Source: an uncultured Candidatus Saccharibacteria bacterium (lineage in GTDB: Bacteria > Patescibacteriota > Minisyncoccia > UBA6257 > WO2-44-18). From it: DNA of 64,000 nucleotides. The DNA lies in contig CAYIBZ010000002.1 of the NCBI GenBank assembly GCA_964361795.1, forward strand, positions 9,362 through 73,361, read 5' to 3'. This document shows, one piece after another, positions 36,653-63,121 of the stretch. The position numbers and the translations under genes are program-made. Within the stretch, counting starts at the first letter, position 1. Every line of letters starts with the position of its first letter. Under the pieces are notes generated by a model. The model was not told the DNA's origin. It ran no database searches and saw only the letters and a program-made list of their open reading frames with translations.

Positions 36653-37706
36653 TGTACAAATTCATGTAATGACTGGCGGCTTTCTCCCAGCTCATTTCTT
36701 TGGCAAATTTAATGGATTCTTGCGACATACTTTTGTGCAAATTTTTATCGGATAAAATTTTTTCCGTTGCCAAGGCTGCGGCTTGAAAATCTTGCGGCGA
36801 AACTAAAAATCCATTTCGGCCATCTAATACCGCATCCTCGGCGCTGGTTTCTTTGGTCGTCACTATCGGCAACCCCGCCGCGGCGGCCTCTAAAAACACC
36901 AATCCGAACCCTTCAATATCCTTATTGCTATCTTGTGGCAACAGGATAAACAGCTCAGCATTTTTGTACAAAGCGATCAATTCTTCCTCGCGCAAATCGC
37001 TTAAAAAAATTACCCGATCGTCCAATTCTAGATTCTGGATTCTAGATTCTAGATTCTGTCTTTCTGATCCATCACCGACTATAACGTATTTTAAATCTCT
37101 AAATTTTTCGGCGATTTTGGCAAACGCCTCAATTGAATATTCAAACCCCTTCCGTTTTTTCAACGCCCCAACACTTAAAATATAGGGTCTGAATTGTTGG
37201 GTGTTTTCGTCTCGAACATTTCCAACATTTCGAACATCAAACTTGCGAAAATCTACTCCATGATTAATCACCTCAATCTTTAAATCCGGTAAAAACTTTT
37301 GAATTTCTTTCTTAGTGTTATTGCTGACGGCAATCACTTTGCCAGCTTTGCGGTACGCCCATCTTAAAAGTGGTCGCTTCCAAAAGGAATAAAGCGACTT
37401 AACCGCTCCCGTGCCGATGGCGGTAATAATCAATTTCTTTTTCAAACCAAGAGAGGCGACCGCAGCAATAACTCCATACGGCCAACCATCCAGCGCGTGA
37501 ATAACATCGCAACTCTTGAAAACCTTTCTTATCATCGGAAAAGCTAAAAGTAATTTCAATTTGTTCGGACATAAGATATTTTCGGATGTTAAAATCTCAA
37601 TGCCAACTCCGGGAATCGCTTTTTTTACGGCCGCCGACAATGAATTATAAAATCGGCCTGCGCCGGTATTATTGCGCGTGTCATGATTTAGATAGCAGAT
37701 TTTCAT
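36621..37706 (-). CDS. glycosyltransferase family 4 (GT-B, retaining)
   Basis: GFGLVFLEAAAAGLPIVTT (E-x7-E-like GT4 motif) and a GRL-type C-terminal domain start. The linker contains a heptamer tandem repeat (37022-37057). Confidence 0.7.
   Translation of the reverse strand: MKICYLNHDTRNNTGAGRFYNSLSAAVKKAIPGVGIEILTSENILCPNKLKLLLAFPMIRKVFKSCDVIHALDGWPYGVIAAVASLGLKKKLIITAIGTGAVKSLYSFWKRPLLRWAYRKAGKVIAVSNNTKKEIQKFLPDLKIEVINHGVDFRKFDVRNVGNVRDENTQQFRPYILSVGALKKRKGFEYSIEAFAKIAEKFRDLKYVIVGDGSERQNLESRIQNLELDDRVIFLSDLREEELIALYKNAELFILLPQDSNKDIEGFGLVFLEAAAAGLPIVTTKETSAEDAVLDGRNGFLVSPQDFQAAALATEKILSDKNLHKSMSQESIKFAKEMSWEKAASHYMNLYINVLFGTASR
37022..37057. repeat. heptamer tandem repeat (AGATTCT/GGATTCT x5) in-frame in GT4 gene, encoding NLESRIQNLE
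   Basis: CAATTCT-AGATTCT-GGATTCT-AGATTCT-AGATTCT. Three units make 21 nt, so frame is kept. Confidence 0.55.
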
Positions 37707-37826
37707 CCCGTTAGAGACAGGTCCCGCTAGCGGGACCGTAACTCGGCCGAATATTTGATACCGACGTTTTATGAATAAATATCATTGTATTTCCTTTAAT
37801 CATTGATTAGTTGTCTCTAACGGGAC
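37707..37826. repeat. 120-nt intergenic unit exactly bounded by 14-bp inverted repeats (TCCCGTTAGAGACA / TGTCTCTAACGGGA) with internal perfect 18-nt palindrome GGTCCCGCTAGCGGGACC
   Basis: Left arm 37706-37719 and right arm 37812-37825. The palindrome lies at 37720-37737. The unit fills the whole gap between the start of 36621..37706 and the stop of 37827..38555. Confidence 0.45.
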
Positions 37827-38555
37827 TTATTTCTTCATTAAAATATCGATCTCTTTGGCGCCCCACCGGTTTTCCAAATAAGTCTTTAATTTTGCGCTAT
37901 GTGACGACAGATTGTAGGAAAATTTTCGCAGCCTTCCTTGAATGCCGTTGAAAATACGAGGGGTTATAAAATATTCTCTACCTACAAAATCGAAATATTT
38001 TAAGGCCGTCTTCTCAAAAACCGCCGGCGTGAGAATGGCGATGTGATTGTTCTTTTTGTGGTAAGCTGGGAAATTCCCGTGCTTCTTGAAATATTTACGA
38101 TTAGGAGGCGAAGCCACATTAATCAGCGAAACAATCAGTAATCCGTCTTTGTCCAAAACCCTGAATGCTTCTCGGAAAAAATTATAAGGATTTTCTAAAT
38201 GCGGAACAAGGCACCAGGCGGTTAAAACTTTAAAAAAGTTGTCCGGCCAGGGAATTTTATCAAAGCTTAAATCCACGGTCTTAAATTCTTTTAATAATTT
38301 CTCTTTCCCGGCAGCCAGATAATTATCTATATCCAAACCGTACAGGTTTTTAAAACCGGATCGGTGCAAATCTTCTATAAACCCCCCTGCCGCAGTTCCG
38401 CAATCCAAAATTGCGCTATTTTTATCCGACCCGGCATATTTTTCAAAAACCCGCAAACCAAAACCGTGACGAATCGTTGGCCCATTAAATTTCGTCATTC
38501 TTTCTTTGACTTTGTCCCGATTTTCTTTTAATTCTTTGGCAGAAAAGTACTGCAT
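37827..38555 (-). CDS. class I SAM-dependent methyltransferase (tandem paralog)
   Basis: ILDCGTAAGGFIEDL motif. Start chosen at the internal ATG (38553-38555) that aligns with the upstream paralog. This gives a TAATG stop/start overlap with the upstream gene. Confidence 0.55.
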   Translation of the reverse strand: MQYFSAKELKENRDKVKERMTKFNGPTIRHGFGLRVFEKYAGSDKNSAILDCGTAAGGFIEDLHRSGFKNLYGLDIDNYLAAGKEKLLKEFKTVDLSFDKIPWPDNFFKVLTAWCLVPHLENPYNFFREAFRVLDKDGLLIVSLINVASPPNRKYFKKHGNFPAYHKKNNHIAILTPAVFEKTALKYFDFVGREYFITPRIFNGIQGRLRKFSYNLSSHSAKLKTYLENRWGAKEIDILMKK

Positions 38556-39241
38556 TAAGGTTTTTGCAAAATATAATAAATGTATCTGGAAAACCATTGA
38601 TTTGCCGGAAAAATTTTTTTTAGGAATTTCAAATTGTTTAAAAACTTATATTTAAGTTCGACTTTGGCATGATCAGTTTGCAATAAATTAAAATGCTTCA
38701 GAAAAGTTTTCTTGAAAATTGCGCGGGTGAAAAATGTCAAATGATTATCGTCTTCTAAAAAGTGGAAGAGGTTTCCACGGAACAAAAACAACAAACGATT
38801 GAGAATGTGGAACGGATTCGGCGTGGAAACAATAAAGATTCCTCCGGGTTTTAACACGCGAGCGGCTTCGCGAACAAAAAAATGCGGGTTTTCCAAATGT
38901 TCTATGGTCTGAGAAGAAACGATCGCGTCTATGCTGAAATCTGGCCAAGGTAATTTTTCAAAACAAATATCCACCGCCTTAAATGCAAAATTCCTTGATT
39001 CATTAGACCTATAATCATCAATATCAACACCCTTAAGATTTGAGTATCCGCTAGCGGTTAATTGCTTCATTAAAGAACCATCGGCGCAAGCACAATCAAT
39101 AATTGACGATTTCTTCTCCGGAACGTACTTTTGCAACAAACTTAAAATTTTTCCGCTACGAACATCCCAGCTGACCCGTTGCTGTAGTGGTTTTAGAATA
39201 TCCCGTTTATCTTTTATTTCTTTCGGAGTAAGGTATTCCAT
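38555..39241 (-). CDS. class I SAM-dependent methyltransferase (tandem paralog)
   Basis: IIDCACADGSLMKQL motif. Collinear with 37827..38555 (ENPYNFFREAFRVL / ENPHFFVREAARVL). Confidence 0.6.
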   Translation of the reverse strand: MEYLTPKEIKDKRDILKPLQQRVSWDVRSGKILSLLQKYVPEKKSSIIDCACADGSLMKQLTASGYSNLKGVDIDDYRSNESRNFAFKAVDICFEKLPWPDFSIDAIVSSQTIEHLENPHFFVREAARVLKPGGIFIVSTPNPFHILNRLLFLFRGNLFHFLEDDNHLTFFTRAIFKKTFLKHFNLLQTDHAKVELKYKFLNNLKFLKKIFPANQWFSRYIYYILQKP

Positions 39242-40569
39242 AATAGATTAGCGAGCCGTTGGCCTGATTTGCCGTCTAATTTGAAACAAGCGCCCTCGGC
39301 AACTCGTTTCCTGGCTTCTCGATCAATGCCAGGATTCTCTAAATAAAGTTTCAGCAATTCTCGCATTTCTTCTGGGCTTTTGGCAATTTTTAGATTCCCC
39401 GCCTTTATAACTTCCTGCTGATGCTCATATTCATAATAACGCAATAAGCTATCCCAAAACGGCTTTGATTTTTTACCGTCGAAACCGATTAATACTGTCG
39501 GCTTATCAAAAATGGCTGCATCTAAGACTATGCTGGAGGGACTCGTGAGTACTGCGGCACTATGATAAATCAAATCCGCTAAATGCCGATCATCGCTTCT
39601 CCTTAGCATTGACTCTTCCAATTTAGAAGCATTTTTTGGAATATCGAAAACCATGCCTTTCGGCAATTGAAATCCGCCAGTCTCTAAATCGCCAAAAAGC
39701 GGGAAGCGAATCACAACCTGCTCATTCAGTTTAGCCAGCTCTTGAAATAAAAAATTATTAAAAGACTTATCGCCTGTCCAGATATCGCTTGGCGGAGTAA
39801 CAAAAATATACTTCCGTTCTGGGTCTAAACCGATCCGTCTCATAAATTCATTCCGATCGCTTCGTTTTCCAGCTAAATAATCGTCATAATGTGGAATGCC
39901 CACTACTTCAATATCACTTTCAGAAACATTGTGATATTGAATAGTCCAAAGTTTAATATTTGAATTTTGGACTATAACTTTATCTGGCAAAGTACGCAAC
40001 AGTCCTTTAGTGGTCGTACTGTCCCATGATCGGCCCATCCCTATTGTAGGAATATTATGACGTTTGGCTTCGCGAACCAAATAAGAGTCGCTAAATTCTT
40101 GAGCGCGCAAATCCTGTAAGTCCGTAGCAAAAACTAAATCTGGCCTATATTTCTCAAATAACTGCTTGAAGCCGCCGCCTGGAATTAGATAATAATCCAA
40201 AAACCGAAAAATCTTTCTTACTAAAGAAAAGCTGCCTGTCCATGCAATAAAAGAATTAAAAAAGTAATTTAAGTAATTTCGTCTTTTCCCTAACTCAACC
40301 AATCTATGAATCTTTTTACTCTTAGTATTTAATAAATTCCAAGACCAAACATGGAATAAAAGATTAATTTTAGATAGCGGACGAAATGGAATCCTTTCGA
40401 TTATCATACTCAGCCCGCCAAATTCTTTCTGGAAAAAATCGGCATTCTTCTCGGGAACCAATAAAATAATTTTAAGACCTGGTCGATCTTTAATCCGCTT
40501 GAAAAAATTAGTTTCCAGTAAATTCCGCACAACTAAATTAAAAAAGCAGCTTATAAAGATAGTATTCAT
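39214..40569 (-). CDS. TagB/TagF-like CDP-alcohol phosphotransferase family protein, paralog 4 of 4
   Basis: Collinear with the other paralogs (MNTIFISCFF..., VVGIPHYDDYL, IFVTPPSD). Confidence 0.45.
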   Translation of the reverse strand: MNTIFISCFFNLVVRNLLETNFFKRIKDRPGLKIILLVPEKNADFFQKEFGGLSMIIERIPFRPLSKINLLFHVWSWNLLNTKSKKIHRLVELGKRRNYLNYFFNSFIAWTGSFSLVRKIFRFLDYYLIPGGGFKQLFEKYRPDLVFATDLQDLRAQEFSDSYLVREAKRHNIPTIGMGRSWDSTTTKGLLRTLPDKVIVQNSNIKLWTIQYHNVSESDIEVVGIPHYDDYLAGKRSDRNEFMRRIGLDPERKYIFVTPPSDIWTGDKSFNNFLFQELAKLNEQVVIRFPLFGDLETGGFQLPKGMVFDIPKNASKLEESMLRRSDDRHLADLIYHSAAVLTSPSSIVLDAAIFDKPTVLIGFDGKKSKPFWDSLLRYYEYEHQQEVIKAGNLKIAKSPEEMRELLKLYLENPGIDREARKRVAEGACFKLDGKSGQRLANLLWNTLLRKK

Positions 40570-43021: not shown

Positions 43022-43065
43022 AGCAATAAAACCTATAACAAATTGAATCAGTTACTAAACCGATG

Positions 43066-43997: not shown

Positions 43998-44522
43998 ATG
44001 TCAAATTTTTTTGTAAAACGAGACGAACTTAAAAAATCAGATGCGATAGTAGTTTTAACGGGAAATGGTTGGGAACGAACAGAATGGGCCATAAAACTCT
44101 ATAAGCAAGAATGGGCAACTCTACTAGTTATGATCGGATCTACGGGTAGCAGACCATCACCGGAAATGGCTGAATTTGCGGAACAGTTCGGCATTCCTAA
44201 AAATAAGATACTTATTGATACTAATTCAACCAACACCCGCCTCAATGCAAATAATGTCGTTGGACTTGCTCAAAAATACGGATGGGAACAAATTATTCTT
44301 GTTACTTCGCCCCACCACCAACTACGCTCCTATCTAACATTTAAAAAAGCAATTAAAGATTTTCAGGGCCATCTCAAAATCATTAACTATCCTCCCTTGC
44401 AATACAGCTGGTTTGAGTTAGTGGAAAGTTCAAGAAACAAAAAACACAAAGTATTAAGATTTTTTTATTTATTCAGCGAACTTTATCGAATCTTAAAGTA
44501 TAGAATCAAAGGAGATTTATAA
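43998..44522 (+). CDS. DUF218 / YdcF-SanA-ElyC-like protein
   Basis: DAIVVLTGNGWERTEWAIKLY and LILVTSPHH resemble the DUF218 family. One of only four plus-strand genes in the window. Confidence 0.45.
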   Translation: MSNFFVKRDELKKSDAIVVLTGNGWERTEWAIKLYKQEWATLLVMIGSTGSRPSPEMAEFAEQFGIPKNKILIDTNSTNTRLNANNVVGLAQKYGWEQIILVTSPHHQLRSYLTFKKAIKDFQGHLKIINYPPLQYSWFELVESSRNKKHKVLRFFYLFSELYRILKYRIKGDL

Positions 44523-45645
44523 GAGAATTTTTATATCTTTGTAAATATTCGGATTTCGAAGGAAACTGCTTTGATATTGCCAAAGTATTTCGAGAAAATT
44601 CGCCTCTTTGTTTGGGATGATTAATCAACCAAATAACTTTTTCTGCCAAAGTTAGTGCGTCACCAACAGGAACTACGAACCCATTGATACCATCCTTAAT
44701 AATTTCACGCGCAGGCGCGACATCTGTCATAATGACAGGTAACCCAGCTGCCGCAGCTTCAACTGGCGATCTTGCTCCGCCTTCATAGTTTGATGTAAGG
44801 ACAAAAACGTTGGATGTTCTGTAATAGGAAACCAAATCATCGGTCCACGGTTCAAGAATAATGTTATCCTTCAATTTTAAATTTTCAATTTTAAATTTTA
44901 AATTTCGGTGTTCCGGTCCTTCACCAACAATCAATAGTAACGACTTGGGATTGTGTTTAATAATCTCTGTCATAGCTTGTATAGCCAATCCTACATTTTT
45001 CTCTCGAGTCAAACGAGACGCAACTAAAATTATCGATTCGAAATTCGGGTATTTTTTATGGAGATCAATAGAAACCGGTTGCTTCTGAAAATCATCGGTA
45101 TCAAAAATTATCGGCAAAACAGTAATTTTAGAGGATGGCAGCTGGAAATTTTTAACTAAACTTTGCCTAATTCGTTCGCTTACCACTCGAACTCCATCGG
45201 CTTTTTTAATCAACCATGAACCTAGAAAAACTCGTATTTTATTTTTCCATGATTCTCTTTTAAAATAAGGACTTAAAAAATCACTGTGACTTTGAATTTG
45301 CAGTGGAATTTTAAATTCTTTTTTCAGCCAATAACCGACTAGTGCGGTTTCGAAAGGATCTTGGGTGGTAATAATCCAAGGATTTAGAATTTCGGATTTA
45401 GAATTTAGAATAATTTTTTTTGCTATTCGATAAACATCAAAAAAATAAAACAGCTTAAATCTGGTATTGGTTGGATAAATGAACACATGATTACTAGATC
45501 CTAAATTCTGCATTCTAAATCCTCGCTTGGTGTAAATAATAATATGCAGTTCCTCAAATAATCCGCCATAATCAATCATCCGCTGTCGAACAGAGGATTT
45601 TTCTTCAAAAATCTTTTGATCTGTAGAGAGTATTAACAACTTCAT
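44506..45645 (-). CDS. glycosyltransferase family 4
   Basis: GGARSPVEAAAAGLPVIMT motif. Contains two in-frame heptamer repeat tracts (44884-44918 and 45380-45414). Confidence 0.6.
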   Translation of the reverse strand: MKLLILSTDQKIFEEKSSVRQRMIDYGGLFEELHIIIYTKRGFRMQNLGSSNHVFIYPTNTRFKLFYFFDVYRIAKKIILNSKSEILNPWIITTQDPFETALVGYWLKKEFKIPLQIQSHSDFLSPYFKRESWKNKIRVFLGSWLIKKADGVRVVSERIRQSLVKNFQLPSSKITVLPIIFDTDDFQKQPVSIDLHKKYPNFESIILVASRLTREKNVGLAIQAMTEIIKHNPKSLLLIVGEGPEHRNLKFKIENLKLKDNIILEPWTDDLVSYYRTSNVFVLTSNYEGGARSPVEAAAAGLPVIMTDVAPAREIIKDGINGFVVPVGDALTLAEKVIWLINHPKQRGEFSRNTLAISKQFPSKSEYLQRYKNSLINLL

Positions 45646-46316
45646 AATTTTTCGAGAACGAAAAATTTGTGATAATGATCCAAAACCGGCCTGACTTCCT
45701 TGATAATACGAAAATACTTATTTAATTCTTTACGAATCTTACGAATTCGCCATCTATAAAGATCTATTTCCCAATAATGTTGGCCGGATGTTTTAATGCC
45801 GTTAAATTTAAGGGGTAACCGTAGGAAAAAGCTTAAAAAAGATTTTTTTAATAGAGTTCTAATGCCGGGAAATTTAAAAACAAATTCCCATCCTGTTGAA
45901 CGATAAGGCAAAGAAATAATGACATGTTTTTTGGAAACTCTTTGTAATTCTCTTAATGCCTTGGGGAAATCTTCATAGGAAATATGCTCCAAAACCTCAA
46001 AAGCGGTTACTATGTCAAAAGATTTATCCGATATTGGCAATGATCGGATGTCGGCAACAATATCCGGATTTAAACTCCCATCAAAATCCGCAGTGGTAAC
46101 GCTATGGCCATTTTTTTTCATATAATTCGAAAAAAATCCGTTACCTTTTCCAACTTCCAAAATTCTTGGTTCATTCGTATCATTAGCATGCATTCGCATA
46201 TTGGCATCGCGTTGCGCAACTTGCTGCGTTAAATCAACCTGATAAAAATAGGAAATAAACCTGTCAAGATCGTCGTATTTTTTCCGACAATAGTGCTCTT
46301 TATTTACTTGCGTCAT
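45642..46316 (-). CDS. class I SAM-dependent methyltransferase
   Basis: ILEVGKGNGFFSNYM motif I and DIVTAFEVLEHI motif II. Confidence 0.6.
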   Translation of the reverse strand: MTQVNKEHYCRKKYDDLDRFISYFYQVDLTQQVAQRDANMRMHANDTNEPRILEVGKGNGFFSNYMKKNGHSVTTADFDGSLNPDIVADIRSLPISDKSFDIVTAFEVLEHISYEDFPKALRELQRVSKKHVIISLPYRSTGWEFVFKFPGIRTLLKKSFLSFFLRLPLKFNGIKTSGQHYWEIDLYRWRIRKIRKELNKYFRIIKEVRPVLDHYHKFFVLEKL

Positions 46317-48525
46317 GTATTAAGTTTACTAGATTATCAACGGTTCGGCTTATGGAAAATTGCTGGGCCTTTTCTTTGGCGTTTTTGACTATCATTTCAC
46401 GAAAATCTTCGTCCCTGCTGATTCTTTCTATGGCAGTTAAAATCTGTTCTTTATTGTTCGGTTCAACCAAGATTCCCTCTTTCCCGTCCTCTATTATCTC
46501 GGTCAGGTTGCCGATATTGGTAGTCACAACGGGCACGCTAGCGTTCATTGCTTCAACCACCTGAAAAGAAAAGCTCTCAAATGAAGTATTAAGTACAAAA
46601 ACGGATGCTTTTCGCAAATGGTCCAAAAGTTTTTCCCTAGGTATCGAACCGGCTAAACTGACTTGATTATTTAATTTTAAATTTTCCTTGCCTACCGGCA
46701 GGCAGGCAATTTTAAATTTTAAATTATCGTATTCCGGCCCGTCGCCAACAATAATCAACCGCCAATCCGGCAAATCTTTCATTATATCAATCAAAACGTC
46801 AAATCCTTTCCACGGAACTAGCCTGCCGGCCGATAGTATCGTTTTGGAATTTGGTCCGCCAGCTGGCGGATTATTTTGCATTTGGATTTTGGCATTTGGA
46901 TTTTGCAATTGAATACCGTTGTAAATAACTTTGACTTTTTTCGGATTTTTTATCCAACCGCCGACCAGTTTTTGGAAATACTTGCTCGGCGTGATGACCA
47001 AATCGGCGCGGCCAACAACCCATTTCTGAATGTTACGCAATAGTTCCGTCCGCCAACCGTATCTTCGTTTTTGAAAATCATCGATTCCGTCTTTCACTCC
47101 GAAACGCTGGACGGCCTGCTCCCAGGCATAGTCTCCCGCCACACGAATGAAGAATTTTTTACCCAATATTCTCGCCGCTAACAGCGAAGGTAGGCCAACA
47201 CTGACGGGATCCTGAGCGTATACGATCTCGAAATTCTTGGACTTCCACAGGCAACTCCAAAAATAGGCTAGGTGCCTGATAATTTTCGGTTTTTTGCGAA
47301 ATTCGGTAAATGCCAGATGATCCACCTTAAAACTTCGTTTGGGTAATTCTTCTTCCAAAAGCTCGGTATAGGTGGCTGGACCCCCGATATCTGGAGGATA
47401 GATACCGGTTGCTATGAGCAACCGCTTAATTTTCAATTTTTGAAATATGGATTCCATTTTTGAGGATATTAAATCCCAAGAATAGTTTTCTAAAACCAGC
47501 TTGCGGCCGTTTTCGGAAAGTCTCGCATACAGTTTACTGTCAGTGAGTAAAATTTTCATTTTCTCCGCCAAATCTTTTGGATCGTCTACTTTAGCAAGAA
47601 GTCCCGTAGCCACTTGCCCTGAGCTTACCGAAGGATTTTTTAGGAAATCGGGAATGCCGCCCACGGCTGTTCCGATGACAGGTAAACCAGCCGCCATTGC
47701 CTCTAAAAATGAACTCCCCAATCCTTCTGATCTGGATGGCCTGACAAAAATATCTGCTTTTGCGAGATATTCCGGAATTTTCTCGGGGTCAATATGTCCC
47801 AAGAATTCAATGTAATTTTCTACTCTTAAATCCCTGACTAATTGTTTAAGTTTCAATTCGTCAGGACCGCTACCTAAAATTTTCAATTTACAATTTTTAA
47901 TTTTCAATTTATGAAGTTCGGGTATAGCGCAAATTAGGGTGTCAAGTCCGTTTTTATGCACCAGTCGCGAAGTCGTAATAATTATTTTAGCATTTGGATT
48001 TTGGGATTTTTTTTGAAAATTGAAAATTGTAAATTGAAAATTTTCTAGCGATACTCCATTCGGCACCACTTCAATTGGACATATCGCTCCATACCTTTTT
48101 GCAAAGTCGGCCAAATAATTACTGATTGCTTGAATACGATCCGCTCTTTTAAAGATTAGTCTCCAAAATGGATACAAAATTCCCACACGATTCAATATAT
48201 GCCCTTCCGAATCACCTTCCTGTAGAGTCAATAAAAAAGGGATTTTCGGATGCCGTAATTTAAATAAAAGCGCCGCGAAACCCGCATATGCGGCCATCAC
48301 TCCCCAAATCGCCTTGAAGGGCTCTTTCTTATGGGCGCGCTCCGCCGCCAACCATGAACGGAAGATATAAAAAAACTTTGCCGGCCTGCCATGGCCGTAT
48401 TTTTGAAAATCATGAGCGAAAATTTGAAAATCAAAATCCGGAAGGCGTTCCATTATTTCTTTCACGGCTATTTCCGCTCCACCGACAAATGGCGAATATG
48501 CAAGACTAAAAACGGCTACTTTCAT
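46300..48525 (-). CDS. tandem GT4-GT4 fusion glycosyltransferase (741 aa)
   Basis: Module 1: AYSPFVGGAE ... EGLGSSFLEAMAAGLPVIGT. Module 2: IYPPDIGGPATY ... FSFQVVEAMNASVPVVTT. Both linkers carry AT-rich repeat tracts. Module 2 carries the 47-nt palindromic segment. Confidence 0.65.
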   Translation of the reverse strand: MKVAVFSLAYSPFVGGAEIAVKEIMERLPDFDFQIFAHDFQKYGHGRPAKFFYIFRSWLAAERAHKKEPFKAIWGVMAAYAGFAALLFKLRHPKIPFLLTLQEGDSEGHILNRVGILYPFWRLIFKRADRIQAISNYLADFAKRYGAICPIEVVPNGVSLENFQFTIFNFQKKSQNPNAKIIITTSRLVHKNGLDTLICAIPELHKLKIKNCKLKILGSGPDELKLKQLVRDLRVENYIEFLGHIDPEKIPEYLAKADIFVRPSRSEGLGSSFLEAMAAGLPVIGTAVGGIPDFLKNPSVSSGQVATGLLAKVDDPKDLAEKMKILLTDSKLYARLSENGRKLVLENYSWDLISSKMESIFQKLKIKRLLIATGIYPPDIGGPATYTELLEEELPKRSFKVDHLAFTEFRKKPKIIRHLAYFWSCLWKSKNFEIVYAQDPVSVGLPSLLAARILGKKFFIRVAGDYAWEQAVQRFGVKDGIDDFQKRRYGWRTELLRNIQKWVVGRADLVITPSKYFQKLVGGWIKNPKKVKVIYNGIQLQNPNAKIQMQNNPPAGGPNSKTILSAGRLVPWKGFDVLIDIMKDLPDWRLIIVGDGPEYDNLKFKIACLPVGKENLKLNNQVSLAGSIPREKLLDHLRKASVFVLNTSFESFSFQVVEAMNASVPVVTTNIGNLTEIIEDGKEGILVEPNNKEQILTAIERISRDEDFREMIVKNAKEKAQQFSISRTVDNLVNLIHDASK
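46673..46719. repeat. 47-nt segment AATTTTAAATTTTCCTTGCCTACCGGCAGGCAGGCAATTTTAAATTT, copy 1 (inside tandem GT4 gene, in-frame, encodes KIACLPVGKENLKL)
   Basis: Identical to 49042-49088. GC-rich imperfect palindrome core (TTGCCT...AGGCAA) flanked by direct AATTTTAAATTT repeats. Confidence 0.6.
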
Positions 48526-49643
48526 GATTTATAAATTTCTTCGGTTTTTTTAATCATTGTCAGCAAATTCAATTTTTCTTTCAAAAAATTGTTGGCTTTG
48601 GCGGCAAAATCTCTTGCGTCTTGTGGATGTTCTAATAAGTAGCTTACTGCCCTTGCTAATTCTTGGGGTTCCTTGGGGGGCATCACTAATCCCCGTCCTT
48701 CAATAATTTCAGTCATTCCGCCAACGCGCGTCACCACAAGCGGAATTTCTGCCGCCATCGCCTCGAGCATAGTATATGGCAGTCCTTCTTTAATAGAAGT
48801 TAAAAGAAAAATATCAAATGCTTTCAAATACGGGGCGGCTGGCGCGATATTTTCTAAAATGAAAAACCGATCGCCTAATCCTAAGTTCTGAATTCTAGAC
48901 TCTAAATTCTTCTTTAACGGTCCCGAACCGATAATAAAAAAATTAACATTAGGTAATAACGCGGCGCTTTCCAGGAAAGTTATATAATCTTTTTCCGTTA
49001 CTAAACGGCCAACAGAACCTATCCATATGCCATCAATTTTCAATTTTAAATTTTCCTTGCCTACCGGCAGGCAGGCAATTTTAAATTTCTTTAGCAATTC
49101 CCGACGAGCTTCTATTTTTCCTAAAAAATTTATTGGCGCAATACCATTATATATAGTTACTAATTTTTCAAATGGCGCGATTTTGTGATTAATAGCTAAT
49201 TGTTTGTCATATTCAGAGACATTAATAATAACGTCTTGGAATCTGGCGGCTATTTTATGCAGCCAGATATAGAAATGCCTCTTTAAAGAATTTAATTTAT
49301 TATTTGGATTAAAAACCCATCCATGCGCGGTAAAAATAATCTTTTTAACTCCTGCCAACCTTGCCGCAATGGCTCCTATAACACCCGCCTTGGAACTGTT
49401 AAGATGTACAATATCTGGCTTTTCTTTCCAAAAAAAGAAAAGTAATTCTCCTAAAGCTAACAGATCGTTAATAAACAAAAAATGAGGCAAAAGAGAATTA
49501 GACAGGAAACGAGCGCCAGTCCTGCCGCCAGTTAAAATCTTCAATTCAAATCTGCTAAGGTCAAGATTTTCTTTAAGATCTTTGACGTACTTCTGCGCGC
49601 CGCCAACATCATCTTTCGTCACTAAAAGGATGATCTTAATCAT
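48522..49643 (-). CDS. glycosyltransferase family 4
   Basis: EGLPYTMLEAMAAEIPLVVTRVGG and GRLVTEKD motifs. Contains a second copy of the 47-nt palindromic segment. Confidence 0.7.
   Translation of the reverse strand: MIKIILLVTKDDVGGAQKYVKDLKENLDLSRFELKILTGGRTGARFLSNSLLPHFLFINDLLALGELLFFFWKEKPDIVHLNSSKAGVIGAIAARLAGVKKIIFTAHGWVFNPNNKLNSLKRHFYIWLHKIAARFQDVIINVSEYDKQLAINHKIAPFEKLVTIYNGIAPINFLGKIEARRELLKKFKIACLPVGKENLKLKIDGIWIGSVGRLVTEKDYITFLESAALLPNVNFFIIGSGPLKKNLESRIQNLGLGDRFFILENIAPAAPYLKAFDIFLLTSIKEGLPYTMLEAMAAEIPLVVTRVGGMTEIIEGRGLVMPPKEPQELARAVSYLLEHPQDARDFAAKANNFLKEKLNLLTMIKKTEEIYKS
49042..49088. repeat. 47-nt segment, copy 2 (inside GT4 gene 48522..49643, in-frame, encodes KIACLPVGKENLKL at a non-homologous position)
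   Basis: Identical 47-mer to 46673-46719. It lies before the GRL motif of this GT4, whereas copy 1 lies in the inter-domain linker. Confidence 0.6.
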
Positions 49644-57160: not shown

Positions 57161-57163
57161 GGT

Positions 57164-57898
57164 TTAAATTCCCCACTTCGTAGTTCCAAAAATAATAACC
57201 AGTAAAATCACGAAAACTGTTAAGTATCTTAAAATCAGCCGCTTGTTTAGGGATTGGTCAGCTTGGCGGGCAATCAAACTGGTTAATGTAAAATAGGTTA
57301 AAAAAACTAAACTTGCCGCGTTAATTGGCCCGAGCGGCAGTAAAGCCGCGAGCCAAGTAATTTCAGAAATAATAAACGCGGCCAGTAAAGCGACTAAAAT
57401 TTTTCTTGCGTAAAGGTTTCGTATCAGAACAAGAGCGGCTAAAAATAATCCAAAAAAATCCAATAAGAAAAATTTGGAAAGATCCGAGTAAAAAAACAGG
57501 ACGGCTGACGCGTAAAATAAAGAAAAATTTAAGAAGCTCTGCCAAAAGCTCCGATTAATTAAAATCAAATCTTTAATGCCTAAAATTAAATAAAAAAGAA
57601 ATACGGCGCCTAACCAGATCAATAAAAAATAACCGCTGTCTAAAGTTTTGCCAGCCGCCAATAAAGAAATGGCTATCAAGATCAGCAAATTGTACGATTG
57701 ATTAAAGCTATTAAACAGCGGACTGGTATAGAGAAATAAGGCAATTCCCAGAAAAAACAAAATCGGGAGCAATCCTAAACTCCCAATTTTTACCAACGCT
57801 AATCCTCCCCCAAAAATAAGGGCCTTAAGCGCTAACCGTAATTGTTGATCCCGCAAAACCAATCTTAACCTTGTCTCCATTTTTAATTTCGCCGCCAA
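57164..57898 (-). CDS. polytopic membrane protein, function unknown
   Basis: 244 aa, mostly hydrophobic helices. Overlaps the 3' end of clpB by about 70 nt, so the true start is probably internal. Confidence 0.3.
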   Translation of the reverse strand: MAAKLKMETRLRLVLRDQQLRLALKALIFGGGLALVKIGSLGLLPILFFLGIALFLYTSPLFNSFNQSYNLLILIAISLLAAGKTLDSGYFLLIWLGAVFLFYLILGIKDLILINRSFWQSFLNFSLFYASAVLFFYSDLSKFFLLDFFGLFLAALVLIRNLYARKILVALLAAFIISEITWLAALLPLGPINAASLVFLTYFTLTSLIARQADQSLNKRLILRYLTVFVILLVIIFGTTKWGI

Positions 57899-60434
57899 TA
57901 ATCTTATCTGCTAGTCTATCTAAGACCGCTTTTTGAATCAACCTCTTGATGGGGCGGGCGCCGTAATCGGGGTCAAAGCCATGGTCAACAATATATTTCT
58001 TGGCAGAACCGTCAATGGCAATCTTAATATCTCTTTCCTGTAATTTATTTCTGACTAACTCCAATTGAATGTCAACAATCTTTTCAATGTCTTTCTTTTT
58101 CAAAACATTAAAGATAATAACTTCGTCAATTCGGTTCAGAAACTCCGGCTTAAAACTATTTCGCAAAGATCCGCGCACTTTTTCCTTAAAATCGTTTTCC
58201 TGTCTGCTGATGTCTCCATCGGTCAGAGCGGTAAAACCGATCTGAGACATTTCCCGGAAATAATGGCTTCCCACGTTGGAGGTCATGATAATAATGGAAT
58301 TCTTGAAATTAACTATTTTGCCCTTGCTGTCGGTCAAGCGGCCATTATCCAAAATTTGCAGCAGTATGTTAAACACCTCCGGATGCGCTTTTTCAATTTC
58401 GTCAAACAAAATCAAACTGTAGGGCCGGTGTCTTACGATTTCCGTCAACTGCCCCCCATCTTCGTGGCCGACATATCCGGGCGGGGAGCCAATCAGTCTG
58501 GCCACTGAATGCTTTTCCATATATTCGGACATATCAATTCGCACTATGGCCTTTTCGTCGTTGAACATAAACTCCGCCAAAGCTCTAGCCAATTCGGTTT
58601 TTCCAACTCCGGTGGGGCCAAGAAACATGAAAGATCCTAGCGGACGATGTTCGTCCGATAAACCAGCTCTTGCCCGCCGCAAAGCGTTAGAAACCGCGCT
58701 TAAAGCCTCTTCCTGGCCAATAACCCGATTGCTCAAATCATCTTCCAGTCTAGTTAGTTTCCGCATCTCTGATTCCAGCATTCTATTCACCGGAATGCCG
58801 GTCCAGCGCGAAACAACCGCGGCAATATCTTCGGCGTCAATGGACTCTTTGATGGAAGAAAATTTATTTTTCTTTTCAAAATTTTTATATTCTTTTTCCG
58901 ATTGAGGCAAAGCGCCGTATAAAAGCTGGGCAACTTTTTCCAAATCGCCGTCTCTTTCCGCTATTTCCGCTTGATGCTTCAAGTCGTCAATCTTTTTGCG
59001 CAAATTATTTAATTTTTCAAACGCCACTTTTTCGGCGCTCCAATTGGCTGAAAGCGATTCATTACTATCCTTGAGAACGGCAATTTCTTTCTCTATGGCT
59101 TTTAAGCGATTTTTATTTTTGACCGCTGATTCTTTCATCAAAGCGGAACGTTCTATTTCAAGGCGAGTCAGCTCCCTCCGGGTTTTATCAATATCTGAAG
59201 GCAAACTTTCCGTTGCCAAACGGCGCGCGGCCGACGCTTCGTCAATCAAATCCACCGCTTTATCCGGCAAAAATCGGTCGGTAATATAGCGGGCCGAGAG
59301 ATTAACCGCTGACACAATTGCCTCATCGCTAATTCTCAAGCCATGATGAGTTTCGTATTTTTCTTTCAAACCGCGGAGAATTGCCATCGCGTCTTCGGTA
59401 GTCGGTTCTTCCACCATGATTGGCTGAAAACGCCGCTCAAGCGCCGGATCTTTTTCTATATGGCGCTGATATTCCCGAATGGTAGTCGCGCCGATAGCGT
59501 GCAGTTCTCCCCTTGCCAATGGCGGCTTCAAAAGATTAGAAGCGTCAATCGCGCCTTCCGCCGCTCCCGCGCCGACAATCGTGTGAATTTCGTCAATAAA
59601 CAAAATAAGGCGTCCGGCGGAATTTTGAATTTCTTTCACGAATGCTTTTAGACGATCTTCAAATTCGCCTCGGAATTTTGTGCCGGCAATTAAAGATCCA
59701 AGATCAAGCATGATGATTTCTTTATCTTTTAGGGTTTCGGGGACGTCGCCGGCGATAATTCTTTGGGCCAATCCCTCAACAATCGCCGTTTTTCCGACGC
59801 CGGGTTCGCCAATCAAAACCGGATTATTTTTTGTGCGCCGGGAAAGAACCTGAATCAATCTCCGCAATTCTTCGCCTCTTCCAATCACCGGATCTAATTT
59901 TCCCGCCTTTGCTTTCTCGGTCAAATTAATCGCGTACTTTTCCAAAACTTGAAACTTGCTTTCCGGAGTTTCGTCAGTGATTCTTGACGAACCTCGCAGT
60001 TGGGCCAAAGCTCTCAACGCCACTTCGCGCCGCGCGCCCACCCTTTCTAAAATCTTCTGGGCTGAAGATGAACAGTCAAAAATGCTTAACAGCAAATGTT
60101 CGCAGGAAATATATTCATCCTTTTGAGAAAGCGCGATTTTGCCCGCTCTATCCAAAACCTGCATTAATTCCGGCGAAAGATAAAGCTGTCCCACGCTGGA
60201 AGCGGTAAAAATTTTAGGCATCTTTTTCATCTCTTCTTCAATCTCTTTATACAAACTGTCTAAATTGACTCCGGACTTAACTAACATCGGTCTGATCAGA
60301 GATTGTTCGTCGCCCATTAGCGAATGAAGCAGATGAAGAACCCTAAATTCTCCGTGATTTTTTTGCGCCGCTAATTCCTGGGCGTTTTGCAATGCTTCTT
60401 GAGCTTTTATTGTGAACCTATTAAATGATGGCAT
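57825..60434 (-). CDS. clpB: ATP-dependent chaperone ClpB (AAA+ disaggregase)
   Basis: Two AAA+ modules ([15 protein letters not shown] Walker A; [16 protein letters not shown] second Walker A), a coiled-coil middle domain, and the N-terminal [16 protein letters not shown] Clp_N. Start set at the internal ATG (60432-60434) matching canonical ClpB N-termini. The ORF-track extension to 60581 is not supported. Confidence 0.8.
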
Positions 60435-60611
60435 AGCAGTAATGTCTAAACGCTCATTTTTCTTAATTGAAGGCCTCGATTTTGCGACCAAGTTCGAGGC
60501 GCGCTGACGAATCGTACCTGTGTACGATGAGGAAGCGTAACGAAGAAATTGTCCAAAATCGGGCCTCCTTCGGTAAGACAATTTTGATCAACTCCTTTGT
60601 TGCTCAAGCTC

Positions 60612-60629
60612 GATGTATACATATACATC
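60612..60629. promoter_or_regulatory. perfect palindrome GATGTATA-CA-TATACATC in the clpB upstream region (candidate operator)
   Basis: 8-bp inverted repeat with a 2-nt spacer, about 180 nt upstream of the clpB ATG in the only sizeable intergenic region there. Not CIRCE and not a CtsR box. Confidence 0.3.
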
Positions 60630-60712
60630 TCGCTCTCGCGCCTCGGATTTGAAACAAAATTGTTCTTATCAATTGTGGAAAATGAGTGTTTAGGCATTAC
60701 TTTAGTATAACA

Positions 60713-61936
60713 TTAAATCTTTCTTTCGGCAAGAGAAACATTTATTAGAATCTCTTTGCCGTTTCGCAAAATTTTGAGCTGAATAGTATCTCCAACCTGA
60801 TATTGCTGGATTAAAGACCCAAGCGAATTATCCCTATTAACCTTTTGTCCATTGACCTCTAAAATAATATCTTCCGCTAAAATACCCGCTTTGCTTGCCG
60901 GAGAATCGGGCATAATCGCCGGACCGTCCTCTCCGCCTCTTACTATAACTCCATAATCAACCAATAATTTTTCTTTTTCTTTAACTTCCGGCGTTATCAA
61001 ATGATAACGTACTCCAAGATACGACACCAGAATCTTGCCAGTGGATCTTACCGATTGGATATCGCGTTTTGCCTTATTAATAGGTATGGCAAACCCTATA
61101 TTTTGCGCGCCGGAAGCCACCGCCGTGTTAATGCCTACAACTTCTCCGCGCAAGTTTAACAACGGCCCGCCGGAATTCCCGGGATTAATAGCGGCGTCAG
61201 TCTGAATAATGCCCTCCAACGTTTCCCGCAGGCCGCGTCCGCCGGAAGCGGTAATTTTTCTTGAAAGCCCGGAGACTATGCCCGCTGACACCGTATTGCT
61301 GAATTCTCCGAGAGCGTTGCCAATAGCGACAACTGTTTGGCCCAATTTGATTGAATCTGAATCTCCCAGCTTTAAGACCGGCAAATTTTCCGCCTTAATT
61401 TTAACTACCGCCAAATCTTGAAAAGGATCGGTTGCCGCTACTTTCCCCGAATACTTTTTCCCGTCGCTGGTGAAAATCGTATAAGAAGCGTCGGGATCGC
61501 TAACTACGTGCTTATTCGTCAAAATCAAACCGTCGGCGGAAACCACGAATCCGCTCCCGCCGCCAATTTCTTTCTCTTGCGTTCCCTTCGGGCAAGGGCG
61601 GGAAAATTCAAATTGCTCAAAAAATTCCTCAAATCCGGGCGGCAAATTTCCAAACGGACTGTACGGGCACTGTTCAATAATAGGGACATTTTTAGTCACC
61701 ACGATAGAAACTACGGACGGCGCCGCGATTTCAACGGCTTTAATAATCCGTTCTTCGTAATCAAAAGCGGATCGATATTCCTCCGCTGGCTTAGGCGGCT
61801 GTACTGGCGTTGACGTGGCTACCTCCGCAGTCTCAGGAAAAATTCGGCGCCATAAATCTTTCAAGAAATTCGCCTCGGCAATCTGGCTATAAATTAGAAA
61901 ACCGGCGATTATTCCTAAAAATAAACTTTTTTTCAT
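60713..61936 (-). CDS. htrA: HtrA/DegP-family serine protease with PDZ domain
   Basis: Trypsin-like domain with His (TNKHVV), Asp and GNSGGPLLN catalytic Ser motif. C-terminal PDZ. N-terminal signal/anchor. Confidence 0.8.
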   Translation of the reverse strand: MKKSLFLGIIAGFLIYSQIAEANFLKDLWRRIFPETAEVATSTPVQPPKPAEEYRSAFDYEERIIKAVEIAAPSVVSIVVTKNVPIIEQCPYSPFGNLPPGFEEFFEQFEFSRPCPKGTQEKEIGGGSGFVVSADGLILTNKHVVSDPDASYTIFTSDGKKYSGKVAATDPFQDLAVVKIKAENLPVLKLGDSDSIKLGQTVVAIGNALGEFSNTVSAGIVSGLSRKITASGGRGLRETLEGIIQTDAAINPGNSGGPLLNLRGEVVGINTAVASGAQNIGFAIPINKAKRDIQSVRSTGKILVSYLGVRYHLITPEVKEKEKLLVDYGVIVRGGEDGPAIMPDSPASKAGILAEDIILEVNGQKVNRDNSLGSLIQQYQVGDTIQLKILRNGKEILINVSLAERKI

Positions 61937-61951
61937 AAAGCTTCTCTCTTT

Positions 61952-63121
61952 TTATTTTAACAATTTTATCAAAACAGAGGTAACGTAATCAAGGTCTTTT
62001 TTCGCGGTTTGCCTCCCTAAACTAAACCTTAAACTTCCCGACGCCCGCTCTTTGGAAAACCCCATCTCTTCTAATACGAAAGATGATCTGGAGATTCGAG
62101 TAGTGCAAGCGGCGCCGGGAGACGCGGCAACGCCCGCTAAATCAAGTTTAATTTGCAGTTCATGGGCGTTCTGTCCCGGAAAATAGACGTTCAAATTATT
62201 CGGCGATCTATTTCTCATTGACCCGTTAAGTTCTAATTTTGGCAGTGTTTTATGAAGTTTCGCCCAAAAATAATTCCGCAACCCCGCCGTTCGCTTGCTT
62301 TCTTTTTCGCACATTCGGTCCGCGATTTCCGCCGCTTTGGCAAACCCAACTATATAAGGGACATTATCAGTGCCGGTAATGATCGGCTTCAAGGCCTTTG
62401 GATCGCGAACATACAATGCGCCGATCCCTTTCGGCCCATAAATTTTATGCGCTGATAGAGTCATTAAATCCACGCCCAAATCGTTTACGTTGCAATTTAA
62501 ATACTGAAACGCTTGAACAGCGTCAGTATGGAAAAGGGGCTTCATCATTGAATAAAAATTATTTATGATTCTAGAAATTTCCCTAATCGGCTGAATCGTC
62601 CCAATCTCGTTATTGGCATACATCACCGAAACCAAAACTGTCCGTTCATTAAGAGCGGATTCCAGTTTCTTCAAATCCACAATTCCTTCTCGGTTAACCG
62701 GAATATAAACTATCTCAACTCCGTCTTTTGCCAGATCTTTGCAGGTTTCCAAAATAGAATCGTGTTCAATCGCCGAAACTATAATACGAGGATTCAGAAT
62801 ATAGGATTTAGAATACGGGAATTTGGAAATAGCCTTTTTCCTAAATTCTGAATTCTGAATTCTATATCCTCTCGCAACTCCTTGGAGCGCTAAATTATTC
62901 GCCTCTGTCGCCGAACCGGTAAAAATAATCTGCTTATAATCCGCTCCGATGGATTCGGCAATTTTTCGGCGCGCGGCAAAAACCGCCCGCGAAGCTTCCT
63001 GCCCAAAACCATGCAGGGCATTTGGGTTGCCGAAAATTTTTCCAAAATACGGCTTCATCGCCTTTTCCACTGCCGGATCCACCGGCGTTGAGGCCGCGTA
63101 ATCTAGGTAGACTTTTTCCAT
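61952..63121 (-). CDS. cysteine desulfurase (IscS/NifS family, PLP-dependent)
   Basis: SAHKIYGPKGIGALYV PLP-lysine motif, GSATEANNLALQG, and a C-terminal active-site region. Carries an in-frame insertion of about 22 aa, encoded by a heptamer-repeat hairpin at 62790-62869. Confidence 0.8.
   Translation of the reverse strand: MEKVYLDYAASTPVDPAVEKAMKPYFGKIFGNPNALHGFGQEASRAVFAARRKIAESIGADYKQIIFTGSATEANNLALQGVARGYRIQNSEFRKKAISKFPYSKSYILNPRIIVSAIEHDSILETCKDLAKDGVEIVYIPVNREGIVDLKKLESALNERTVLVSVMYANNEIGTIQPIREISRIINNFYSMMKPLFHTDAVQAFQYLNCNVNDLGVDLMTLSAHKIYGPKGIGALYVRDPKALKPIITGTDNVPYIVGFAKAAEIADRMCEKESKRTAGLRNYFWAKLHKTLPKLELNGSMRNRSPNNLNVYFPGQNAHELQIKLDLAGVAASPGAACTTRISRSSFVLEEMGFSKERASGSLRFSLGRQTAKKDLDYVTSVLIKLLK
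62790..62869. repeat. 80-nt hairpin-forming heptamer-repeat insertion (GGATTCA GAATATA GGATTTA GAATACG ... TAAATTC TGAATTC TGAATTC) in-frame in the cysteine desulfurase gene
   Basis: Two arms of GAATTC-type heptamers in inverted orientation around TAGCC. Encodes about 22 extra aa (RIQNSEFRKKAISKFPYSKSYILN) absent from canonical IscS. Shares the 11-mer GGATTTAGAAT with the 45380-45414 tract in a GT4 gene. Confidence 0.5.

Follow-up and report, generated by a model that had tools for sequence, protein, structure and literature searches.

Heptanucleotide arrays and a 21-nt GC-rich hairpin inside glycosyltransferase and cysteine desulfurase genes of an uncultured bacterium

The DNA studied here, hereafter the window, is a 64,000-nt stretch from an uncultured bacterium. 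Its minus strand carries at 36.6-54.4 kb a surface-glycan cluster, formed by five glycosyltransferase genes of family GT4 (one of them a double module), methyltransferases, a flippase-like protein and an epimerase, and elsewhere the gene of the cysteine desulfurase IscS. Inside the GT4 and IscS genes we find short in-frame arrays of AT-rich 7-nt units, two of them split by a GC-rich hairpin of 21 nt. We propose, with a probability of roughly 0.55, that these tracts are DNA-level heptamer arrays, made and homogenised by slippage, copied locally by template switching or short-tract conversion, kept only where the heptad peptide is harmless and patched against stop codons; the IscS cassette would be their insertional form and the hairpin a separate frame-neutral element that favours arrays. 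The tracts look like tolerated DNA-level passengers and not like gene switches, and would bring no benefit to the cell. From its sequence, the host appears to be an uncultured groundwater bacterium of the Parcubacteria (Patescibacteria; candidate phyla radiation, CPR); the nearest homologs of its IscS share at most 65% identity, and some of them are named Parcubacteria or Patescibacteria.

Heptanucleotide arrays in coding sequence

Tandem repeats were called with Tandem Repeats Finder (TRF, score 30) and with our own run-finder, in which a run comprises at least 14 matched positions with one mismatch at most; periods 4 to 15 were compared with shuffles. Five runs of period 7, five of period 14 and one of period 9 were found in the window and none at the remaining periods, against 0-0.1 runs on average in the shuffled window, with none at periods 7 and 14. 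All eight period-7 arrays lie within long open reading frames (ORFs): seven are located in the GT4 genes, which occupy 10% of its length (binomial estimate for this concentration, P ~1e-6), and the eighth in IscS. Head-to-tail 7-nt units in three or more copies, with an excess over chance that is specific to period 7, are present both in the window and in six related loci. Most arrays of the relatives, like those of the window, sit inside long ORFs and not mainly in intergenic DNA as in Nostoc and Xanthomonas. Three units are 21 nt and keep the frame, so that these arrays within coding sequence give one heptad, or seven codons, per three units.

In the GT4 genes the tracts align without gaps to solved GT4 enzymes, paralogs and orthologs, and therefore native helix or linker has been replaced and nothing added. 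In an alignment of six GT4 modules the arrays land exactly on the helix following the GxGP motif. The array at 37022-37060 causes no length change in the paralogue alignment, and GEGPEHRNLKFKIENLKLKDNIIL, encoded by the tract at 44870-44907, matches GFGSESKKLNELIQKYGLENHVYL of PDB 7ec7 residue by residue. Compared with PimB', the arms of the double GT4 gene correspond to -5 aa (48013-48044) and to a net +1 aa (47876-47907). The unit AGAATCT reads N-L-E-S-R-I-Q and AAAATTK reads N-L-K-F-K-I-E, and both peptides set L, I and L at i, i+4 and i+7, like the native helix. The tracts overwrite this conserved amphipathic helix, or variable linkers, because three heptanucleotides correspond to one heptad, a structural rule that explains the survival of arrays on amphipathic helices. 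Orthologs of the GT4 gene at 44506-45645 (GT4_b), at 45-63% identity, keep the helix length, and most of them carry array-type peptides such as NLESRIKNYELG, NLKFKIENLKLQ and NLEFRIQNLELN. GT4_b and the C-terminal module of the double gene (GT4x2_C) are only 28% identical as proteins, yet the array DNA at their common helix is near-identical.

Ordinary conservation of the protein, in which the need for an N-L-x-x-x-I-x heptad together with AT-rich codon bias mimics a DNA repeat, would account for the agreement of the GT4 tracts with the conserved helix residues L, I/V, L and L that paralogs, orthologs and PDB enzymes share. This explanation is largely refuted, and we regard it as hardly credible. 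The DNA repeats with period 7 and not 21, and the residues left free are the remaining two reading frames of one 7-mer; periods 6, 9, 12 and 15 show essentially no excess (at most 1-2 arrays per set); the arrays occur in both orientations, some of those in relatives being intergenic; and deviations from the consensus gather where a stop codon would otherwise arise. If the 41 intragenic arrays examined, from ten loci, followed their consensus perfectly, they would hold 30 in-frame stops. Substitutions that remove a stop account for 31 of the 137 deviations, at codons that represent 7.2% of the positions, and out-of-frame stop triplets are retained (43 of 59). The same patching is visible in the window, where the lone off-consensus unit of the array at 37022-37060, AGAATCC, abolishes an in-frame TAG.

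The arrays are not peculiar to this genome. For comparison, loci amounting to ~1 Mb were fetched from relatives and from other genomes (L-numbers below), along with IscS protein orthologs (P-numbers). Six Parcubacteria IscS loci from different studies show an excess at periods 7 and 14, with 1.8 arrays per 10 kb and at most 1-2 arrays at other periods. The units are genome-specific (GTGTCAG, AGCACGA, AGAATCA and others). Arrays of the same type are also found in housekeeping genes, namely those of IscS, phosphoglucomutase and MnmA. In metagenome-assembled genomes (MAGs) of Bacteroidota and Ignavibacteria (~150 kb) period 7 leads, at 0.53 per 10 kb, and other phyla show 0.29 per 10 kb; this lead outside the CPR agrees with the over-representation of heptamers reported for bacteria (PMC4692102).

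A preliminary description of this DNA, made from the letters alone, had reported a family of heptamer and 14-mer tandem repeats lying in frame within the GT4 and cysteine desulfurase genes, with three units keeping the frame. Both TRF and the run-finder recover this family (Table 1). The tract given as 37022-37057 is called by TRF at 37025-37057 (period 7, 4.7 copies, 92%), that at 45380-45414 is found as described, and those at 47881-47911 and 48014-48043 prove to be mutually inverted copies. The duplicated 14-mer is likewise present (88% over its 2.9 copies, plus the further copy at 47984-48009), the 11-mer GGATTTAGAAT occurs in both of the places said to share it, and the inverted repeat at 62790-62869 has 23-nt arms at 62789-62811 and 62841-62863 (83%). 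Two tracts needed correction. The array placed at 44884-44918 is real but spans 44870-44907, the earlier right end covering non-repeat sequence, and at 48883-48910 there is only a degenerate array (AGAATTT AGAGTCT AGAATTC AGAACTT), which is missing from the TRF list at score 30. The present work adds the inverted relation of 47876-47907 and 48013-48044, a left arm (45498-45523), a further array (49032-49055), the two identical copies of the GC-rich hairpin (46686-46707 and 49055-49076) and the palindrome at 46855-46870.

Table 1. Repeat tracts in the GT4 and IscS genes of the window (window coordinates).
Feature	Position	Strand	Encoded peptide	Location and remarks
AGAATCT array, ~4.7 units	37022-37060	-	QNLESRIQNLEL	GT4 gene 36621-37706, helix after GDGSE motif; TRF and period-7 run
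AAAATTT/AAAATTG array (period 7 x4.7; period 14 x2.6)	44870-44907	-	RNLKFKIENLKLK	GT4 gene 44506-45645, helix equivalent to that of 37022-37060
Right arm, coding-strand units AAATTCT	45380-45414	-	ILNSKSEILNP	N-terminal domain of GT4 gene 44506-45645; inverted partner of 45498-45523
Left arm, AGGATTT AGAATGC AGAATTT	45498-45523	-	GFRMQNLG	Inverted repeats I5 and I10 with right arm 45380-45414
Composite, AAAATTT/AAAATTG array split by GC-rich hairpin	46672-46728	-	NLKFKI-ACLPVGK-ENLKLN	C-terminal half of double GT4 gene 46300-48525
Perfect 16-nt palindrome TCCGCCAGCTGGCGGA	46855-46870	.	PPAGG	Directly adjoins the 14-mer array
14-mer array CAAAATCCAAATGC x2.9	46873-46911	-	QLQNPNAKIQMQN	Linker before C-terminal Rossmann strand, second GT4 module
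Arm	47876-47907	-	HKLKIKNCKLKI	Inverted copy of 48013-48044 (I1)
Single 14-mer unit	47984-48009	-	SQNPNAK	Equivalent linker of first GT4 module; 95% over 20 nt to 46873-46911
Arm	48013-48044	-	ENFQFTIFNFQ	Inter-domain linker; inverted partner of 47876-47907
Degenerate AGAATYT array	48883-48915	-	KNLESRIQNLGLG	Helix of GT4 gene 48522-49643; below TRF threshold
Second composite, AAAATTK array plus hairpin 49055-49076	49032-49088	-	KFKI-ACLPVGK-ENLKLKID	Inter-domain linker, GT4 gene 48522-49643
IscS gene	61952-63121	-
Hairpin cassette: left arm of AGAATTC/AGAATTT units, centre GGAAAAAGGCTATTTCC, right arm of complementary units	62790-62869	-	RIQNSEFRKKAISKFPYSKSYILN	IscS gene; ~20 aa added

Inverted arms, the IscS cassette and turnover

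Some arrays form inverted pairs. The arms of pair I1 are 32 nt long, 97% complementary and spaced by 105 nt, and those at 45380-45414 and 45498-45523 are complementary across 86 nt coding for the conserved strand-helix unit VFIYPTN...AKKI of GT4_b. In five GT4_b orthologs the loops flanking this unit carry arrays whose units differ by genome (AGAATTT, AGAATTA, AGAATCA, AATTTCC etc.), and the two arms of any one genome are reverse complements of each other. The mean complementarity score of the arms is 12.0 within a genome and 7.0 between genomes, the true pairing being the best of 120 permutations. Either the arms convert one another or their pairing is under selection. In the second case the arms would be functional mRNA or DNA stems around coding segments, acting in mRNA processing, translational pausing or recombination. 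Complementarity kept within genomes despite variable units, the 97% match of the I1 arms and fold energies below those of shuffles (z -2.1 for the IscS cassette, whose DNA fold is at -9.5 kcal/mol, and z -2.9 for the hairpin composite) are what such a function would lead one to expect. We nevertheless find it quite unlikely, as the pattern comes from five orthologs, two of which show weak complementarity (scores 8.0 and 9.5), arm-to-arm conversion predicts the identical pattern, and many arrays are single and partnerless; moreover, the window contains no Rfam match at gathering thresholds. It contains no tRNA either. Nor do the arms form a recoding inverton: when the DNA between paired arms is inverted in silico, 1-6 stop codons arise in each of the three cases.

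The tract in IscS differs from those in the GT4 genes, being a true insertion. Alignment to solved IscS structures (PDB 9wep) leaves a gap of 20 aa. The gain of ~22 aa proposed earlier was thus right in kind, its size being +20 aa against the solved structures and +23-24 aa against orthologs without the tract. The insertion is missing from some Parcubacteria orthologs and takes variant forms in others, and its peptide is identical in the population variant P0241. In an AlphaFold2 model of IscS (mean pLDDT 88) it is predicted as a low-confidence extension of helix 71-85 to 71-100, followed by coil, before strand 112-116. Peptides of the type [FY]RI[QK]N..F...SKS[YH]ILNP are found at differing sites in different IscS orthologs, and the peptides encoded by the tracts include NLKFKIACLPVGKENLK and YRIQNSEFRK. 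Across 120 orthologs three IscS loops vary in length (12-71, 15-156 and 15-57 aa) and are filled with array-type peptides. We considered a quantisation of insertion lengths in steps of 21 nt and rejected it, since the four variable sites in the 120 orthologs show no mod-7 clustering; the strain-pair differences of 21 and 84 nt are anecdotal. As a separate observation, the IscS of the window is devoid of the conserved GSGQE.GLRSG loop before GTDNVP (62380-62420, residues ~246-251), a gap of ~10-11 aa with respect to PDB structures and most orthologs. Similar deletions are seen in orthologs P0002, P0003, P0005 and P0008. Such an enzyme may be altered or degenerate.

Turnover of such tracts is visible in the IscS genes of two near-identical strain pairs. 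L005 and L006 are 100% identical over 755 nt and then differ in a block of 115 nt. At IscS site 3 the block of L006 is a copy (98% over 55 nt) of the 63-nt hairpin with 11-nt terminal inverted repeats that this gene carries at site 1, and L005 has another cassette at site 3. L002 and L004 are identical over 625 nt and then hold unrelated cassettes, and their second site contains two different heptamer arrays of equal length. The diverged bases beside the replaced blocks suggest imported alleles. In the Hainich strain L004 (10625-10800) we also observe a ~160-nt GC-rich in-frame insertion (SSPKPAQASGHGVPSKVRDERAEEQASSPRWGERSGLREEGFSS) in IscS, at the place where a heptamer hairpin is found in the near-identical L002.

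All tracts could be considered to derive from mobile elements, discrete and palindromic, that were inserted in frame and have heptamer-built arms as an incidental trait; the tracts would be their copies or fragments. The preliminary description had spoken of in-frame insertions at tolerant loops, similar to the palindromic elements known as RPEs, and for part of the material this holds: residues are added at fold-compatible sites by the IscS cassette (+20 aa) and by the nested 21-nt hairpin (+7 aa), which behaves as a discrete element. Also in favour of such elements, one peptide type recurs at different sites of IscS orthologs, a single gene of L006 holds its 63-nt hairpin with 11-nt terminal inverted repeats twice, and 47 nt of the composite at 46672-46728 are identical to 49042-49088, at non-homologous positions of two GT4 genes. 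Neither reading fits the GT4 heptamer tracts, which gain no length and whose arm pairs enclose conserved native coding sequence. The tracts of the window share no element-length consensus such as RPE families have; in BLAST searches the 80-nt IscS cassette has no second copy and only unit-level matches of 16-25 nt. No target-site duplications were seen, and the 20 ORFs scanned at 36.6-63.7 kb include no transposase, either of the RAYT or of the Y1/HUH type. As an account of all tracts we therefore consider mobile elements unlikely.

Slipped-strand phase or length variation of the glycosyltransferases had been suggested as well, in which case the arrays would be contingency loci, slippage by +/-7 nt frameshifting surface-glycan GT4 genes on and off as in NeuO of E. 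coli K1. The unit length is no multiple of three, seven of the eight arrays are in GT4 genes of the glycan cluster, and NeuO, a capsule-modifying enzyme whose gene has a heptanucleotide repeat inside, offers a precedent. The comparisons made speak against this suggestion. The arrays are short (3-5 units) and interrupted, compared with 2-93 perfect units in NeuO; outside the replaced blocks they are identical within L005/L006 and within L002/L004, including a perfect (AGAATCA)x4.6; a Hainich aquifer contig bears an identical copy of GT4_b; the arrays at 44870-45523 are unchanged in a second Hainich assembly; and the IscS peptide is the same in P0241. In these assembly-level comparisons of two strain pairs and a second assembly no change in copy number was seen, which argues against high-rate slippage. 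The occurrence of such arrays in the genes of IscS, phosphoglucomutase and MnmA, and the absence of any frameshifted GT4 gene within the window, point in the same direction, and phase variation is in our opinion improbable. Two further leads were discarded: the apparent difference between the window and L126 is a scaffold gap of Ns with duplicated flanks, and arrays are not behind the split CofD gene of L006, which has none at its junction.

The 21-nt GC-rich hairpin

The hairpin CCTGCCTGCCGGTAGGCAAGG (match form GCCTGCCTGCCGGTAGGCAAGG; pattern also written CCTGCCTRCCGGYAGGCA(A)GG) is nested in two arrays of the window. In the composite at 46672-46728 the 22-mer match is located at 46686-46707 and the insertion proper measures 21 nt, lengthening GT4x2_C by exactly ACLPVGK (7 aa) in comparison with five paralogous modules. 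Cutting out 21 nt restores the AAAATTG/AAAATTT register, and the same is true for a one-base variant in the ortholog L127. In 15 of 16 array-flanked copies elsewhere the register is also regained on removal of 21 nt, with 5.4 of 7 junction matches against ~2.1 when 20, 22, 23 or 24 nt are removed.

To describe its distribution, the exact 22-mer was searched for in one genome per species, and the 20-nt core, with any base but G in front of it, in metagenomes. The former scan gave at least 119 loci in MAGs or single-cell genomes (SAGs), with unrelated flanks and a chance expectation of ~0.07, and the latter at least 120 further contigs. In the metagenome copies the core is preferably preceded by A and followed by G/T-T-T, which suggests AA^TT as a putative insertion target. 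Among the matches listed, the hosts comprise CPR lineages, Bacteroidota, Omnitrophota, Planctomycetota, Nitrospirota, Chloroflexota, Proteobacteria, Actinomycetota and others, each genome holding 1-6 exact copies; 47 of 123 copies (~40%) lie deep inside long ORFs; 10.3% of copies are in heptamer arrays, against 0.43% of control sites (24-fold), and 7.4% are between complementary flanks, against 1.1% of control sites.

The hairpin is open in five of six frames, and the copies in ORFs use all five, reading LPAGRQG, CLPVGK, LPTGRQA, CLPAGR and LAYRQAG. The host genes include PpsA, HypF, UvrD and another GT4, and also the essential RpoC, TopA (at the same zinc-ribbon turn in two genomes), LysRS, GyrB and S17. 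Two orthologous GlmU-like genes have gap-free flanks that are 70% and 69% identical, and the hairpin between them is identical at 22 of 22 positions, being better conserved than its host gene.

Concerning its structure, the hairpin is an imperfect GC-rich palindrome with an internal GTAG. The top strand forms a 7-bp stem with a G.T wobble, and folding of the opposite strand is less favourable. Among the variants is a perfect palindrome of 20 nt, CCTGCCTGCCGGCAGGCAGG. In L022, L011, L051, L053, L072, L063, L070 and L101 the 22-mer is nested in, or tandem to, other members of the hairpin family, for instance as cctgcctgtccg-[22-mer]-taggcagg or as direct tandem duplicates, suggesting self-targeting or local amplification. 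A second family of GC-rich mini-hairpins, TCCGCC-N2-6-GGCGGA, occurs 24 times in the ~1 Mb of fetched loci (0.2 expected), inside ORFs of unrelated genomes, and behaves like the 21-nt hairpin. The exact 16-mer TCCGCCAGCTGGCGGA was found six times in four sources (the window, L036, three times in L053, and L090), with variants in IscS of L002 and L004.

As a caveat, all genome matches for the hairpin (119 listed) are MAGs or SAGs. A sequencing or assembly artefact is unlikely, the hairpin being in frame at orthologous codons in MAGs of different studies (L027/L038 and L061/L123), and it is also present in a single-cell genome and in contigs of up to 2.97 Mb whose names are of long-read style. 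Carriage by phages was rejected as well, with 0 matches in 2.9 million viral contigs, and no full match was found in 72,556 plasmids or 5,426 E. coli genomes. In L084 (~240-400, minus strand) a degraded tRNA-Asp-like sequence stands beside an intact tRNA-Asp; the D-loop region of the degraded sequence holds the 22-mer and its variable region another small hairpin. Taking the element out did not restore a tRNA, and the idea of a tRNA-Asp fragment around this copy was abandoned.

Of the parts of this system, the hairpin is the likeliest to be new in kind. We know of no mobility mechanism that accounts for its spread, and no paper containing its sequence or its peptides was found in a literature search. 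On a tentative view, which we hold with clearly less confidence than the proposal for the arrays, the hairpin would be a hitherto undescribed, ultra-small frame-neutral element of seven codons that crosses phyla and fills by preference exactly three unit-slots of arrays, or the loops of other hairpins. Arrays, arms and hairpin might then stem from one DNA transaction in steps of 7 or 21 nt, by which proteins of uncultured bacteria would be continuously remodelled at their surface helices and loops. As the hairpin is short and well defined, its boundaries, targets and co-occurring genes are testable in public data.

Origin of the arrays and relation to known repeat systems

Template-switch mutation rewrites a stretch of DNA as the reverse complement of a nearby one and alters its length little. 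In the mechanism that we favour for the tracts, replication slippage would give rise to the arrays and homogenise them, and template switching or short-tract gene conversion would copy them to nearby sites in direct or inverted orientation. Such local copying would explain the length-neutral overwriting, the arm pairs around conserved coding segments and the complementarity within genomes despite the drift of units between them. An array of 3-5 units would read as a short amphipathic or low-complexity peptide. This heptad peptide fits the surface helix after GxGP in GT4 enzymes, inter-domain linkers and exposed loops as in IscS, and hence arrays could persist in genes. Selection would remove only changes that break the protein, a unit that threatens an in-frame TAG or TAA bearing a substitution. 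The frame-neutral hairpin, separate from the arrays, would have been inserted into two of them.

Several points weigh against this mechanism. The case for slippage and template switching is an indirect one. The differences within the strain pairs are whole-block replacements with diverged flanks, and homologous recombination could have brought them in as divergent alleles, without any local event. The co-variation of the arms fits equally well a selection for DNA or RNA stems, that is, a function. A neutral model predicts no bias towards GT4 genes, where seven of the eight window arrays are found, unless AT-richness or relaxed constraint is responsible. The presence of array-type peptides at one helix across 45-63% identity needs long-term homogenisation or recurrent origin, and the lengths of the IscS insertions are not quantised in steps of 7 aa.

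Each of the known systems that we compared differs in at least one defining feature, be it location, size, variability or lineage. In bacteria heptamer repeats are over-represented and occasionally form inverted stem-loop pairs, and they have been described as intergenic (PMC4692102). The heptanucleotide simple sequence repeats of heterocystous cyanobacteria (STRR) and of Xanthomonas (GGGAATC) resemble our arrays in their tandem 7-nt units, period-7 excess, genome-specific units and some inverted pairs. Unlike them, nearly all arrays described here are inside ORFs, in frame, stop-patched and placed on tolerant helices or loops, the host belongs to the CPR and the units are AT-rich. The poly-psi motif of NeuO in E. 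coli K1 is an AAGACTC heptanucleotide repeat of the coding region in which three units make one heptad; its arrays are N-terminal, perfect, of 2-93 units and hypervariable, acting as an on/off and rheostat switch (PMC3046976). A heptanucleotide array inside the gene of a surface-polysaccharide enzyme, with a heptad per three units, is common to both cases. The arrays of the window are internal, interrupted, of 3-5 units and invariant in the comparisons made, in contrast to the variable copy number of NeuO. RPEs are palindromic elements of ~150 bp found in frame in unrelated metabolic genes, with ten sequence families, a conserved peptide and compatibility with the fold (PMC10969869). The IscS cassette and the 21-nt hairpin are likewise in-frame palindromic insertions, but the cassettes found here (21-80 nt) are heptamer-built and without element-length consensus, no family element of ~150 bp with a conserved peptide was found, and most GT4 tracts are replacements.

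With regard to the hairpin, its size and dispersal recall the small dispersed repeats (SDRs) of Nostoc. As Elhai et al. reportedly described in 2008, these are 21-27 nt long, with near-identical dispersed copies between unrelated flanks, in families within the cyanobacteria. SDR5 of Nostoc inserts precisely within HIP1 (PMC4390886). The hairpin also has dispersed near-identical copies of this size with unrelated flanks, filled and empty sites and insertion into other repeats, sitting in register inside heptamer arrays. It differs in being identical across phyla, and thus not a lineage-restricted (cyanobacterial) family, and in having ~40% of the listed copies deep in ORFs. Repetitive extragenic palindromes (REP/REPIN) are similar as imperfect GC-rich palindromes of 20-40 nt, with a strand-asymmetric hairpin, a G.T wobble and an internal GTAG; they are extragenic, species-specific, present in hundreds of copies and accompanied by a cognate RAYT, whereas among the listed matches the hairpin shows few exact copies per genome, is often intragenic and is the same across phyla. 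Inverted repeats inside coding sequence with both arms translated are known from mitochondrial genes of Nematomorpha (PMC6649704). The arm pairs of the window resemble them in this respect, and resemble template-switch mutations in the small net change of length; those cases are eukaryotic or mitochondrial and their arms are not heptamer arrays, and template switching in the window is a putative mechanism. A literature search on in-frame palindromic or heptanucleotide repeats of CPR/Patescibacteria gave nothing relevant among the papers listed first, and we found no description of CPR proteins whose helices and loops routinely carry in-frame heptamer arrays, of co-varying arms around conserved coding segments or of a 21-nt hairpin identical across phyla. 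If the arrays are general, part of the variability in sequence and length of Patescibacteria proteins would be written by a repeat process at the DNA level and not by selection on the protein, with a bearing on annotation, alignment, phylogenetics and structure prediction for much of the uncultured diversity.

Some further features were noted in the related loci and in the window. Phosphoglucomutase is encoded by two adjacent ORFs (domain I; domains II-IV) in L001 (6209-7596), L003 (5889-7271) and L006 (7200-8636), and in L001 both of them hold GTGTCAG-type arrays. L001 also contains a 75-nt intergenic array (GTGTCAG/GTATCAG, 8991-9065) near a gene with 23S_rRNA_IVP / bAvd domains, upstream of IscS. 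In the window a perfect 17-nt inverted repeat, ACCAATTTCCGCAAGGC / GCCTTGCGGAAATTGGT (35067-35083/35138-35154, arms 54 nt apart), is located inside the 569-aa ORF 34943-36652, and a perfect 14-nt inverted repeat (37706-37719/37812-37825) flanks the 120 nt that separate the first GT4 gene from the methyltransferase gene following it. At 63708-63777, just downstream of the RNaseH-like gene near the window end, lies an imperfect palindrome of ~70 nt that is AT-rich (39-nt arms, 79%).

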